From: an uncultured Planctomycetales bacterium | GTDB lineage: Bacteria; Omnitrophota; Gorgyraeia; Zapsychrales; JAHFFX01 | Length of the DNA stretch: 64,000 nucleotides | NCBI GenBank assembly: GCA_964612665.1 | Contig: CAZTCI010000002.1 | Span: 147,659-211,658 of the forward strand | Reading direction: 5' to 3' | In this document: positions 39,202-44,515 of the stretch, in pieces | Numbering within the stretch: position 1 is the first letter of the stretch | Layout of the letters: every line of letters begins with the position of its first letter | Notes under the pieces: generated by a model | Database searches by the model: none | What the model was told of the DNA's origin: nothing | The model's input: only the letters and a program-made list of their open reading frames with translations | Program-made: the position numbers and the translations under genes

Positions 39202-40988
39202 ATTTGGATAAGCGAATGCCGAATATCAACTATGTCTGGGCGGGGTTAATGGTTGAGGAATTGATTCGGCTGGGGGTTGATTATTTTTGTATCGCCCCAG
39301 GTTCACGTTCAGCGCCTCTGGCCGTGAGTGTCGCGATGAACCCGAAGACAAAAAGTTTTGTCCACTACGACGAACGCGGTTTAGCCTTCCACGCGCTGGG
39401 ATATGTTTCCTCAACGCACAAACCCGCCGTGCTTATCGCAACTTCGGGGACCGCCGCTGCAAATTTTTTACCCGCCGTCATTGAATCCGCAAAGAAAAAA
39501 TTACCTTTAATTGTTTTAACCGCCGACCGTCCGCCGGAGCTGCGTAAAACCGGTGCTGATCAAACAATTGAACAAGTTGGATTGTTTGGTGAGTATGTCC
39601 GCTGGCAGTTTGATGTACCTTGCCCGGAGGAAGAATTTCCGCCGGCGTTTATTTTAACCACAGTTGATCAAGCCGTTTTCCGCGCCCAAGGCCGTCCCGC
39701 CGGGCCGGTTCATTTAAATTGTATGTTCCGCGAACCACTGGCGCCTGTTCAAACTGGTGAAAACATTTTTCACTATCTAAAAAGTATTAAACGCTGGCAG
39801 GCAGGAAAATCGCCCTATACAAAATACATACCATCAGAACAGACGCTGTCTTTAGAATCTCTGAGAGAAATTTGTGGAGTTGTTAATCGATCTCAACCTG
39901 GGATTGTTGTCGTCGGAAAATTAAGTTCTAAAGCCGATCAAGACGCGGTGTTATCGCTTGCCGATAAACTTAACTGGCCGGTTTTTCCGGATGTGACTTC
40001 TGGTTTAAGGGTGGGGAAGATTCATCCCACTGTAATTTCCTATTATGATCAATTACTATTAACGAAACGCTGGCCGGAAAAATTTAAGGTGGATTGTGTC
40101 CTTCATCTGGGCGGACGGATAACTTCAAAACGCTGGTATCAATGGATCGCCGGACAAGAACCTCAACATTACATCATGGTGTTAAATCACCCGCTGCGTC
40201 ACGATCCGCTCCACAATGTCACTCACCGTGTTGAATCTAAAATCAGTTTGTTTTGTGAAACTATTTTGCCGGATATTAAAGCGAGAAAAGACCGTAATCT
40301 TTTAAATAAGCTGACGCGTGCTTCTAATGAAATTGATAAGGAACTTGGCCGTTTTATCGATGGAAAAGATTCCCTTTCGGAACCTTGCGTTGCGCGGCTC
40401 GTTTCAGAATTCATCCCCCAAGATTCTGGATTATTTTTGGCGAGTAGCATGCCGATCCGTGAGATGGACATGTTTGCCCGCGCGAACGGGCCGGCGGTTG
40501 TCATCGGTTCAAACCGCGGCGCGAGCGGTATTGACGGGACGATCGCAACGGCCGTAGGATTCGCGACGGGTTTGGAAAAACCGGTCACGCTTTTAATTGG
40601 CGATTTGGCTTTTTTGCATGATTTGAATTCATTATCGATGCTAAATAATCTCAAAAAACCCGTCGTGATTGTCGTACTCAACAACGACGGCGGCGCAATT
40701 TTTTCATTTCTGCCGATTGCTGACTACCGAAATGTTTTTGATTACGAAAAATTTGTGGGAACTCCACACGGTTTAAAATTTAAAGCCGCCGCCGAACTTT
40801 TTCATCTGAATTACGCCGCACCGGCGGATACAAAAGAATTTATCCAATCCTATCAAACGGCTTTGAAATCAAAACGATCAAGCGTCATTGAAATTCAAAC
40901 CGACCGACCAACAAATCACGCGCTTCATCAAAAATGGCAGCAGCACATCGAGCCTGTTATTAGTAAAACATTAAAGGATCATCAGTGA
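39198..40988 (+). CDS. menD: 2-succinyl-5-enolpyruvyl-6-hydroxy-3-cyclohexene-1-carboxylate synthase (ThDP-dependent)
   Basis: YVWAGLMVEELIRLGVDYFCIAPGSRSAPL N-terminus and a ThDP-binding GDLAFLHDLNSL region. Confidence 0.85.
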   Translation: MNLDKRMPNINYVWAGLMVEELIRLGVDYFCIAPGSRSAPLAVSVAMNPKTKSFVHYDERGLAFHALGYVSSTHKPAVLIATSGTAAANFLPAVIESAKKKLPLIVLTADRPPELRKTGADQTIEQVGLFGEYVRWQFDVPCPEEEFPPAFILTTVDQAVFRAQGRPAGPVHLNCMFREPLAPVQTGENIFHYLKSIKRWQAGKSPYTKYIPSEQTLSLESLREICGVVNRSQPGIVVVGKLSSKADQDAVLSLADKLNWPVFPDVTSGLRVGKIHPTVISYYDQLLLTKRWPEKFKVDCVLHLGGRITSKRWYQWIAGQEPQHYIMVLNHPLRHDPLHNVTHRVESKISLFCETILPDIKARKDRNLLNKLTRASNEIDKELGRFIDGKDSLSEPCVARLVSEFIPQDSGLFLASSMPIREMDMFARANGPAVVIGSNRGASGIDGTIATAVGFATGLEKPVTLLIGDLAFLHDLNSLSMLNNLKKPVVIVVLNNDGGAIFSFLPIADYRNVFDYEKFVGTPHGLKFKAAAELFHLNYAAPADTKEFIQSYQTALKSKRSSVIEIQTDRPTNHALHQKWQQHIEPVISKTLKDHQ

Positions 40989-42568
40989 CTCAAGAACTTC
41001 TAAAAACTGAATCACTCGAAATTAACGCACAGTTCAAACATGCGTTTGATTTGTTAGAAACAACCAACGCCAGCGTTTTTATTACCGGCCAAGCCGGCAC
41101 GGGGAAATCTACGTTCCTTAAATATTTCGTCAAAACGACGCGCAAAAATGTAATCGTACTTGCCCCGACGGGCGTGGCGGCACTTAACGTGAACGGGCAG
41201 ACGATCCATTCGTTTTTTGGTTTCCGGCCGGACACAACGATCGACAACGTTGAAGAAATCCGTTTAAGCAAAAATAAACGCCAGCTTATGGAAAATATGC
41301 ATACGCTCGTCATTGATGAAATCTCAATGGTGCGGGCGGATTTGTTGGATTGTATTGACCGGATGCTTAAGCTCCACGGCGGTGCCAGGCATAAGCCTTT
41401 CGGCGGCGTTCAGATGGTTTTTATCGGTGATTTATATCAGCTTCCGCCGGTTGTCCGCGCCAATGAAGAAAACATTTTTAAAACCATTTATCCGAGCCCT
41501 TATTTTTTTGACGCTAAAGTTTTTAAAGAATTGACGATCGATTTCATTGAATTTGACCAGCATTATCGTCAGGAAGACCCGGCGTTTCTCGAACTTTTAA
41601 ACGCCATCCGCAATAATTCAACGTCCCAACAAGCGATGGATATTTTAAACCGGCAATTTTCCTCGGGCATTAAAGAAAACCCCAACGAATTTTATATTGC
41701 GCTGACTACAACCAACGATTTGGCCGACCGTATCAACTACGATAAGCTTCACGCCATCTCCGAGGAGCTTTACACATTTCCCGGGGAAATCAGTGGACAG
41801 TTTGATCAAAAGAATTTACCAACGAACGAAACTTTAGAAGTCAAAGTCGGCGCGCAGATCATGCTGCTTAACAACGACCCGGAAAAACGCTGGGTCAATG
41901 GCAGTATTGGCAAAATCATTTCAATCGATGAAGCGCCAGGCATGGAAACAATGATCCGCGTTGAGCTCACAACTGGCAGCCGCGTCGATGTCGCGCCGTT
42001 TGCGTGGGAGATTTATAACTTTTTTTATAATGAAGAAGCAGGAAGTCTGGAGTCGGAAGTGGTTGGCGCCTTCCGACAATATCCTTTGCGGTTGGCGTGG
42101 GCGGTCACGATTCATAAAAGCCAGGGCAAAACGTTTGACCGCGTCATTATTGATTTGGGCCGCGGTACTTTTTCGCACGGGCAAACATACGTCGCCTTAA
42201 GCCGCTGCCGGAGTCTGGAAGGGATTATTTTGAAACGTCCCGTCCAGAAACGGGATATCTTGATGGACAAACGGATCCCGGAATTCATGGTCAATTACCA
42301 ATACCAAATGGCCGGCCGCCAATGGCCCGATGACAAAAAGCAAGCGCTCATCAAACAGGCGATTGAACAAAGGTCGTTGCTTGAAATTCTTTATCTAAAA
42401 GAAACCGGCGAAAAAAACCGCCGGACGATTGTTCCCAAAGATCTACGGCTCGTCGATTATCTCGGCCAAAAGTGCTGGGGTGTTGAAGGATTTTGCCAGG
42501 AACGGAAGGAAGACCGGATTTTTCGGTTGTCGTGTATTGTGGATATTAGAAATTCAAAGGAGGGTTAA
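40985..42568 (+). CDS. Pif1/RecD-family P-loop DNA helicase with C-terminal WYL-like domain
   Basis: Walker A GQAGTGKST; LAPTGVAALNV; DEISMV (Walker B); C-terminal HKSQGKTFD helicase motif. The final ~90 aa (RTIVPKDL...YLGQKCWGVEGFC..R..RIFRLSCI) look WYL-like. Confidence 0.7.
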   Translation: MTQELLKTESLEINAQFKHAFDLLETTNASVFITGQAGTGKSTFLKYFVKTTRKNVIVLAPTGVAALNVNGQTIHSFFGFRPDTTIDNVEEIRLSKNKRQLMENMHTLVIDEISMVRADLLDCIDRMLKLHGGARHKPFGGVQMVFIGDLYQLPPVVRANEENIFKTIYPSPYFFDAKVFKELTIDFIEFDQHYRQEDPAFLELLNAIRNNSTSQQAMDILNRQFSSGIKENPNEFYIALTTTNDLADRINYDKLHAISEELYTFPGEISGQFDQKNLPTNETLEVKVGAQIMLLNNDPEKRWVNGSIGKIISIDEAPGMETMIRVELTTGSRVDVAPFAWEIYNFFYNEEAGSLESEVVGAFRQYPLRLAWAVTIHKSQGKTFDRVIIDLGRGTFSHGQTYVALSRCRSLEGIILKRPVQKRDILMDKRIPEFMVNYQYQMAGRQWPDDKKQALIKQAIEQRSLLEILYLKETGEKNRRTIVPKDLRLVDYLGQKCWGVEGFCQERKEDRIFRLSCIVDIRNSKEG

Positions 42569-42569
42569 T

Positions 42570-42902
42570 ATGCTTACGAAAAAAGATAAAGAGTTGATTG
42601 TTGAATTTAAAAAAAGGTTGCCAGAACAGATTAAAAAACATCTGAAGAATATTATCGCCTTTGGTTCTCGAATTAATGGTAAGGCACAAGAGGATTCTGA
42701 CTTAGATATTGTTCTTTTGGTTGATAAAAAAAGTCCTGGCCTTGAAAAACAATGTGAGGATATTGCTTATCAGGTTATGTGGGACCACGATTTTAAGCCG
42801 ATCATTTCATTAAAGATTTTTACTGAATCTCATTTCGCTAATGCCGTGCGTAACGGATTTTCATTTTACAAGCATGTCGCTACCGAAGGAGTCCGTGTAT
42901 GA
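42570..42902 (+). CDS. Minimal nucleotidyltransferase (MNT) domain protein
   Basis: AFGSRINGKAQEDSDLDIVLLVD motif. RBS aaggaggg upstream; the start overlaps the helicase stop region. Confidence 0.7.
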   Translation: MLTKKDKELIVEFKKRLPEQIKKHLKNIIAFGSRINGKAQEDSDLDIVLLVDKKSPGLEKQCEDIAYQVMWDHDFKPIISLKIFTESHFANAVRNGFSFYKHVATEGVRV

Positions 42903-44033: not shown

Positions 44034-44206
44034 AGAAATTTAATTATAAAGCTTTAATTAAAATGACAAGAATCGGTAGCCGTGCCATCAAAAAGGCTCA
44101 AGAAGAAAATCGGCGCAAAGGCTTGCCCAGTGTTTATTCCAAAAACAATCGGCTCTATTATGAATTACCCGATGGGACGATTACGATGAAAAAGCCGAAA
44201 TTTTGA
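44030..44206 (+). CDS. Small basic ORF (58 aa), possibly truncated by the downstream insertion
   Basis: ATGA overlap with the preceding ORF. Its last 12 codons are duplicated at 44442-44478, with a different continuation (…PRLKKIK). Confidence 0.3.
   Translation: MKKFNYKALIKMTRIGSRAIKKAQEENRRKGLPSVYSKNNRLYYELPDGTITMKKPKF
44168..44197 (+). repeat. 30-bp direct repeat (copy 1) cccgatgggacgattacgatgaaaaagccg; copy 2 at 44445-44474
   Basis: 29 of 30 identical; the two copies flank a ~250-bp AT-rich segment carrying ORF 44240-44440. Confidence 0.6.
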
Positions 44207-44239
44207 TGATGAGTAATATGTTAATTAAGGGAGGCTAGT

Positions 44240-44440
44240 ATGGAGAATGAAAATAAGTTTATTACTAAAAAAGAATTTTATCAGGCTTTATCAAGCATTT
44301 TCCTTTTTTTTGTCCTTGTCATTGGTGCTTTGGAACGTTTAGTGCATGGTCAGATTTCTGATTTAACGTTTGGGGCTTTTCACTTCGCATTTCTTATTCC
44401 ATGTTTATATTTTTTAATAAAAGCGAGACGGACGAGATAA
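44240..44440 (+). CDS. Small hypothetical membrane protein (66 aa) within the repeat-flanked insert
   Basis: RBS aagggagg; one or two TM helices; no known family. Confidence 0.3.
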   Translation: MENENKFITKKEFYQALSSIFLFFVLVIGALERLVHGQISDLTFGAFHFAFLIPCLYFLIKARRTR

Positions 44441-44515
44441 GTTGCCGGATGGGACGATTACGATGAAAAAGCCGCGCTTGAAAAAAATTAAATAGCGGAA
44501 GGATGATTTTTAAAC

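Follow-up and report, generated by a model that had tools for sequence, protein, structure and literature searches.

The menaquinone biosynthesis (men) operon on contig CAZTCI010000002.1 of an uncultured bacterium carries, between menD and menB, about 3.5 kb that encode a Pif1-family helicase with a C-terminal WYL domain, a minimal nucleotidyltransferase (MNT)/HEPN gene pair, a disrupted zeta-toxin-family kinase and two small open reading frames (ORFs), orf58 and orf66. We analysed this locus within a 64-kb stretch of the contig (positions 147,659 to 211,658; hereafter the window, in whose numbering positions are given). An earlier note had read the whole of 40985-44480 as a compact, partly decayed defence/toxin-antitoxin island. 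Our results make it likely that the locus instead combines two layers that differ in age. The helicase appears to be an ancestral, vertically inherited resident of the operon, while 42570-44480, directly behind it, has the features of a low-GC, lineage-specific and partly decayed toxin-antitoxin cassette that was inserted in the operon. The earlier description therefore fits the cassette, but the helicase is not part of the insert. The men genes of the window are all on the + strand, and the nearest men operons are in metagenome-assembled genomes (MAGs) labelled Omnitrophota, or mislabelled Planctomycetales.

The presence of a 527-aa Pif1/RecD-family helicase, as first noted from the letters, was confirmed by its motifs (Walker A GTGKST, DEISMV and TIHKSQGKTFD) and by a Pfam match to PIF1 (PF05970, 117 bits against a gathering cutoff of 25.9, E 1.1e-33). 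The suspected WYL-like C-terminus was also recovered, at residues 455-522 (PF13280, 29.5 bits against a cutoff of 21.8; PADLOC WYL model, 6e-8). Residues 9-522, WYL domain included, aligned to PDB 8BNS with an E value of 4e-178; 8BNV was also matched, as were Pif1 structures of bacteria, yeast and human. 8BNS is the Pif1 helicase of Sulfurihydrogenibium sp. (SsPif1) and 8BNV that of Deferribacter desulfuricans (DdPif1), and each has a C-terminal WYL domain (PMC9964779). More than 8000 homologues exist, and the best 120 were used for a tree and a motif alignment. Most of these 120 were 52-56% identical to the window helicase and ~520-545 aa long, and the C-terminal motifs YLK..K..R...P and C..R...FR were kept in all of them. 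RecD2 was ruled out (80.6 bits against the NCBIfam TIGR01448 cutoff of 500), so that the helicase stands apart from housekeeping RecD2. The matches mark it as a canonical bacterial Pif1-WYL, a known protein type, and ATP-dependent unwinding in the 5' to 3' direction is predicted from ~58% similarity to SsPif1 and from the biochemistry of TePif1 of Thermotoga elfii. The title of the TePif1 report calls the WYL domain an accessory single-stranded DNA (ssDNA) binding module (bioRxiv 10.1101/163188). Among characterised Pif1-WYL helicases the domain thus serves as an accessory part that binds ssDNA and not as a sensor of defence signals (PMC9964779; bioRxiv 10.1101/163188).

The helicase gene is closely fitted into the operon. 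It begins at a GTG, with a 4-nt overlap onto the stop of menD; across five operons the menD/helicase junction is -4 to +1 nt, a spacing that suggests translational coupling. The closest homologues (52-67% identity) were found inside the men gene cluster of seven other assemblies. Five of them have the order menD-Pif1-menB: P0004 (56%, L021/22), P0005 (56%, L023/24), P0021 (54%; L028, a 3.36-Mb genome), P0003 (63%, L015-17), where the longer order is ubiE-menF-menD-Pif1-menB, and P0002 (67%), which lies directly upstream of menB. P0013 (54%, L032) is separated from menB by one gene, and P0077 (52%, L025-27) stands in the order ubiE-Pif1-menA-menC. The men-linked helicases all fall in one clade, which holds ~24 of the best 120 homologues in a neighbour-joining (NJ) tree. 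Within this clade, men linkage was seen in eight of nine contexts, over a menD divergence down to 48% identity; three helicases from the other clade (P0016, P0109 and P0120) had no nearby men genes. Helicase neighbourhoods were viewed in 11 homologue contexts and none had an MNT/HEPN pair beside the helicase, so that the comparison lends no support to the suggestion that the helicase, HEPN and MNT act together as a unit. A tblastn search of the relatives' loci returned no MNT, HEPN, zeta or orf58. A helicase scan of metagenomes gave just three distant loci (39-43% identity) that were uninformative on synteny.

In the helicase-free relatives L002, L003, L005 and L006, menB comes straight after menD. 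Taken alone, this arrangement would suggest a 3.5-kb insert, but the contexts of the helicase homologues contradict it. The gap in the men operon, which had been called unusual, is so for part of the lineage, while other relatives hold the helicase in the same slot. When MenD, MenB, MenA and MenF were combined in an NJ tree, the operons with the helicase (those of L023, L028, L021, L015 and the window) were basal and paraphyletic, and the helicase-free operons (L002 and L003-L006) were nested among them; the simplest history is one old acquisition followed by later loss or relocation. The GC content of the helicase gene (0.463; GC at third codon positions, 0.525) resembles that of menB and menA. 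Because relatives hold the helicase in the same slot, its GC is native and the men-protein tree places helicase-free operons among helicase-bearing ones, the helicase appears to have been inherited vertically with the operon, and its inclusion in an acquired island is contradicted by the synteny of the relatives. For the helicase, this vertical inheritance at the same position is an outcome that the earlier note had itself named as speaking against its reading; the WYL similarity is genuine. Repeated independent insertion of a mobile helicase gene at a menD-menB hotspot was also considered. The gap is variable: it is occupied by unrelated ORFs in L004 and, in L010, by a menH-like gene for an alpha/beta hydrolase. 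In L032, restriction-modification and DUF1016 genes precede the helicase. We regard this explanation as very unlikely, since the relatives are ordered in much the same way by helicase similarity as by the similarity of their men proteins, the composition of the gene is native, the 4-nt overlap with menD recurs, and no recombinase or repeats flank the helicase.

The wider helicase family shows some further variation. In the WYL motif C..R..DR.FR (aa ~505-512, window ~42500-42520), the second arginine is replaced by W in most members of the men-linked clade and by V in one, and is kept as R in the window helicase and the outgroup. The W substitution is probably why Pfam leaves the WYL domain unflagged in several clade members. 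At L029 4838-5980, L032 1315-1647 and L033 5340-6014, either a DUF1016 (PD-(D/E)xK-type) gene lies immediately before the Pif1-WYL gene or an AbiEii nucleotidyltransferase-toxin gene overlaps it. L032 belongs to the men-linked helicase clade and has a type I restriction HsdR fragment upstream of the helicase.

The long-term conservation of a Pif1 gene in a quinone operon is the sole mildly unusual point of the locus. One explanation is that the function of the helicase is linked to menaquinone or respiratory metabolism and that its position reflects selection for co-expression, for example of genome maintenance scaled to respiration or oxidative damage. The frequent men linkage within the clade, its persistence across divergent menD genes and the tight junctions would fit such a tie, and the in vivo role of bacterial Pif1 was described as unknown (PMC9964779). 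If the explanation were true, the coupling of helicase expression to quinone or respiratory metabolism would be the first physiological clue to bacterial Pif1. We nevertheless consider it unlikely: the helicase has disappeared from the operon in nested lineages, where menD directly adjoins menB, one in-clade member has no linkage to men genes, there is no biochemical link between a superfamily 1B (SF1B) helicase and quinone synthesis, and we found no literature linking Pif1 with menaquinone operons. Neutral lock-in within an essential operon accounts for the pattern and is the most economical explanation of the position. In the two-layer reading, an ancestor of the Omnitrophota-like lineage would have gained an intact Pif1-WYL gene between menD and menB, and the gene would thereafter have been inherited vertically, probably being transcribed together with the men genes and coupled to them in translation. 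The helicase would most likely serve housekeeping genome maintenance and be held by its position inside the essential operon; its WYL domain, by homology to TePif1, DdPif1 and SsPif1, would be an accessory ssDNA-binding module. A role of the helicase as a MenH replacement was rejected on fold, and helicase-free relatives also have no menH at the slot. No menH was found in the window operon or in the Omnitrophota-like relatives. The hydrolase-like ORF in the menD-menB slot of L010 (Ignavibacteriales; 11749-12546, 265 aa) is probably menH.

The second layer begins one base past the helicase stop codon and runs to 44480. Its GC content of 0.376 is in the lowest 6% of 1.9-kb windows. The expected MNT/HEPN pair with a 4-nt overlap is present. 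The MNT matched Pfam NTP_transf_2 (PF01909) and Polbeta (PF18765), carries the motif GS...DLD and matched the PADLOC candidate PDC-S09 (2e-12); its ribosome-binding site, AAGGAGG, lies 8 nt upstream within the last helicase codons. The HEPN protein matched PF05168 (E 2e-13), PDB 9XBD ('HEPN domain-containing protein', 6e-18) and AF0298 (1e-6). As adjacent, overlapping nucleotidyltransferase and HEPN genes, the two have the arrangement of a generic MNT/HEPN pair, and a toxin-antitoxin activity is putative. Short A-rich repeats found where the MNT, zeta and menB genes begin were examined as attachment (att) sites and rejected, as they are lysine-rich N-terminal codons.

The whole 3.5 kb could alternatively be a single horizontally acquired defence/toxin-antitoxin island, in which a WYL-sensing Pif1 and the MNT/HEPN pair form a unit. 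WYL domains regulate several defence systems, Pif1-WYL homologues from the other clade adjoin AbiEii or DUF1016 nuclease genes, and PADLOC (PADLOC-DB v2) returned matches for the helicase in addition to that of the MNT. The helicase matches, to the candidates PDC-S68, PDC-S53 and PDC-M16A and to type IV RecD, are partial, however, and extend over just the generic core that helicases share within far longer proteins, and no complete known anti-phage system among the PADLOC models was found at the locus. The defence-system search that the earlier note had proposed thus yielded only partial or candidate matches. The one-island explanation is further contradicted by the same helicase slot in at least five related operons that have no MNT, HEPN or zeta, by the helicase GC, which is like that of the men genes while that of the toxin-antitoxin part is not, and by the binding of ssDNA by the TePif1 WYL domain. 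With the helicase kept in relatives without the rest, only 42570-44480 is insert-like, and we judge a single island to be very unlikely.

Downstream of the HEPN gene, the predicted zeta-like kinase split by an insertion was verified. As encoded, the gene consists of two ORFs (43285-43539 and 43638-44033; 84 and 131 aa), which separately scored 16.1 and 22.1 bits against Zeta_toxin (PF06414, cutoff 22.3). When 173 nt were removed in silico, the rejoined protein (...LDEL|IRRGRSFVV..., 191 aa) scored 40.3 bits against Zeta_toxin and 44 bits against AAA_33. Its alignment with intact 189-aa proteins annotated as 'zeta toxin family' (59-62% identity) needed no gaps, and a single high-scoring segment pair spanned the junction in a zeta toxin family protein of a Persephonella plasmid (44% identity). 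The gap-free alignment defines the interruption as 173 nt. An alternative reconstruction, with 185 nt taken out between TTTTGT repeats, left a 4-residue gap and a lower score and was rejected. The C-terminal fragment had no PADLOC match. The inserted 173 nt fold into two strong hairpins (z -4.1 and -3.7) and have imperfect inverted ends (27 nt at 70%); a hairpin with a T-run lies at 43484-43535. The right half of the insertion (43595-43658) is a hairpin of ~64 nt (AGGCCTTTTCTC ... GAGAAAAGGCC) that occurs a second time just upstream of ubiE, where its fold has a z of -3.2; the 12-mer AGGCCTTTTCTC was observed three times against 0.36 expected. We read the 173-nt element as similar to a miniature inverted-repeat transposable element (MITE).

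The small ORF that overlaps the 3' end of the kinase gene, orf58, resembles small ORFs that overlap the 3' ends of zeta-like genes on plasmids of Persephonella (51% identity), Synechocystis (pSYSG, 26-30%) and Crocosphaera (29%). The recurrence of this order on three plasmids shows that orf58 is no chance small ORF and marks the kinase and the small downstream protein as a conserved two-gene module. orf58 had no PADLOC match. A conserved four-gene unit of MNT, HEPN, zeta and orf58 was rejected, as the ORFs upstream on the Persephonella plasmid are not MNT/HEPN and pSYSG has MNT and zeta without HEPN. On pSYSG (L035 1203-3510), an MNT gene overlaps the start of the zeta-like gene, and behind the latter come its small partner and then a DarT/macro-domain pair, forming a dense toxin-antitoxin array. 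In the window, the small ORFs and the segment bounded by direct repeats are present as noted earlier; the repeats are 38 nt at 89% identity, lie 277 bp apart and share a 27-nt exact core (44171-44197 in the left copy). The 277-bp segment turns the orf58 end ...KKPRLKKIK* into ...KKPKF*; with the 277 bp removed, the right repeat would extend orf58 to ...TITMKKPRLKKIK*. The segment contains orf66, whose GC of 0.318 is the lowest of the region. orf66 had no family matches in Pfam, PADLOC or NCBIfam, found only itself among 5.8 billion proteins and may not be a real gene.

It is common here for toxin-antitoxin cassettes to sit within operons, and the 64-kb window holds three MNT/HEPN pairs. The second pair (3781-4110 and 4091-4510), whose HEPN belongs to the NTase_sub_bind/HepT-like type, lies between argF (2858-3781) and argG (4507-5670), co-directional with them. 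The third pair (9543-9905 and 9902-10294; HEPN PF05168) lies directly upstream of dapF (10251-11123), again co-directional, and is ~30-35% identical to the pair in the men operon. As the arg and dap operons also hold such cassettes, the idea that the insertion 'targeted' an essential operon over-reads the data, and a place inside such an operon does not set this locus apart. Related men operons carry other small genes: in L002 (12865-13405), a BrnT toxin gene between menB and menA together with a small ORF that overlaps it and had no significant Pfam match; a 23S-rRNA-IVP/bAvd-like gene between menB and menA in L015 (10500-10898); two ORFs without a Pfam match between menD and menB in L004 (10230-11617); and a PIN/Phd pair after menB in L032. 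MntA-type toxin-antitoxin genes were described as mobile cargo exchanged in Omnitrophota (bioRxiv 10.64898/2026.05.20.726742). In the two-layer reading, the second layer would be a later, genome-specific insertion of 1.9 kb directly past the helicase stop, made up of small selfish modules co-directional with the operon. The nucleotidyltransferase would neutralise its HEPN partner, and the kinase and orf58 would form a second module, in which the kinase would now be inactivated by the 173-nt hairpin element and the 3' end of orf58 altered by the repeat-bounded segment carrying the orphan orf66.

Several observations weigh against the two-layer reading. The in-clade helicase P0009 (L031) has no nearby men genes, so that linkage is not universal, and the trees are unbootstrapped NJ trees of few loci. 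Outside the clade, Pif1-WYL genes adjoin DUF1016 nuclease, AbiEii and AAA_14/DUF4143 genes, and a residual caveat is that some of the wider Pif1-WYL family may have a conflict-related role. Clean att sites or target duplications were absent from the edges of the 1.9-kb insert. The MNT scored 30.7 bits against NCBIfam MntA, under the cutoff of 60, and the HEPN sequence has R89-x4-Y94 in place of the R-x4-6-H RNase motif; the toxin-antitoxin activity of the pair stays putative because of these two points. Type VII HepT/MntA was rejected on the same grounds and because the HEPN is of PF05168 and not PF01934.

Features of the locus and its neighbours (window positions)
Feature	Position	Strand	Basis or remark
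ubiE	37085-37825	+	operon start
menF	37828-39201	+	men operon
menD (SEPHCHC synthase), upstream neighbour	39183-40988	+	Pfam TPP_enzyme_N/M_2/C; 48-58% identity to menD of related operons
Pif1-family SF1B DNA helicase, C-terminal WYL, 527 aa	40985-42568	+	Pfam, PDB 8BNS, synteny
WYL domain-coding part of helicase (aa 455-522)	42347-42550	+	Pfam PF13280
MNT, putative antitoxin, first cassette gene	42570-42902	+	Pfam NTP_transf_2, Polbeta
HEPN (PF05168/UPF0332 type), putative toxin partner of MNT	42899-43282	+	Pfam HEPN 2e-13
Zeta-toxin-family P-loop kinase, 5' part (aa 1-67), disrupted	43285-43485	+	Walker A GPNGSGKT
173-nt MITE-like insertion in zeta-like gene	43486-43658	no strand	gap-free join with intact homologues
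Zeta-toxin-family kinase, 3' part	43659-44033	+	Pfam Zeta_toxin positions 92-177
orf58, putative antitoxin, small partner of ~190-aa zeta-like kinases	44030-44206	+	plasmid homologues
Direct repeat, left copy (orf58 3' end)	44160-44197	no strand	repeat search
orf66, hydrophobic 66-aa orphan ORF	44240-44440	+	within 277-bp repeat-bounded segment
Direct repeat, right copy	44437-44474	no strand	repeat search
menB (DHNA-CoA synthase), downstream neighbour	44516-45355	+	Pfam ECH_1 1e-77; 76-88% identity to menB of relatives
Hairpin element, second copy	37013-37076	no strand	just upstream of ubiE

The menB start is likelier to be the ATG at 44531 than 44516, and menA, menC and menE lie downstream of menB. 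Three tRNA genes (Thr-TGT, Tyr-GTA and Gly-TCC; 36157-36800) stand immediately upstream of the men operon. An Rfam scan of 36.5-45 kb matched a single tRNA; the gaps gave no match to a riboswitch or any other known RNA. Promoter and terminator counts were not above those of shuffled sequence, and a tandem repeat search gave nothing relevant. Further upstream, a long co-directional gene run (~22450-35980) is type IV pilus or type II secretion-like by its ORF translations, with prepilin-like N-termini at 32126-34618 and large ATPase/platform-like ORFs at 28975-31990.

The main value of the analysis is a correction: a gene that breaks up a textbook operon, and for that reason looks like part of an island, can have been inherited vertically for a long time, and only a comparison with relatives tells such a gene from the truly recent toxin-antitoxin cassette next to it. 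A further lesson of the locus is how freely MNT/HEPN pairs and other modules of the toxin-antitoxin kind ride in the biosynthetic operons of small uncultured bacteria, and the conservation of menD-Pif1-menB gives a modest lead on the in vivo role of bacterial Pif1 helicases.

All components of the locus are ordinary members of known families. The 173-nt element is like MITE or repetitive extragenic palindromic (REP) elements in its length, non-coding nature, imperfect inverted ends, strong hairpins and related copy in the window; unlike them, it is present as one full and one partial copy in 64 kb and has no clear target-site duplication or parent insertion sequence. The rejoined kinase has the P-loop kinase fold of the zeta-toxin family (PF06414; epsilon/zeta, PezAT and a short ~190-aa 'predicted ABC-type ATPase' subgroup). 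It differs from that family in being broken by the element, and from epsilon/zeta systems in having its partner gene downstream and overlapping rather than an epsilon-type antitoxin upstream. The MNT/HEPN pair shares with known modules (type VII HepT/MntA and the archaeal and thermophile pairs) the gene order with MNT first and HEPN second, the GS...DxD motif, the 4-nt overlap and sizes of ~110 and ~127 aa. In contrast to those modules, its HEPN is of the PF05168/UPF0332 type (AF0298-like) rather than HepT (PF01934) and lacks R-x4-6-H, and its MNT is under the NCBIfam MntA cutoff. The helicase has the same length as TePif1, DdPif1 and SsPif1 and the same SF1B core, Walker A/B, 2B/SH3-like, UvrD_C_2 and C-terminal WYL parts, and it retains the basic WYL residues (RRTIVP and C..RKEDRIFR). 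Unlike these helicases, it is found in the menaquinone operon of an Omnitrophota-like MAG that is not labelled as a thermophile.

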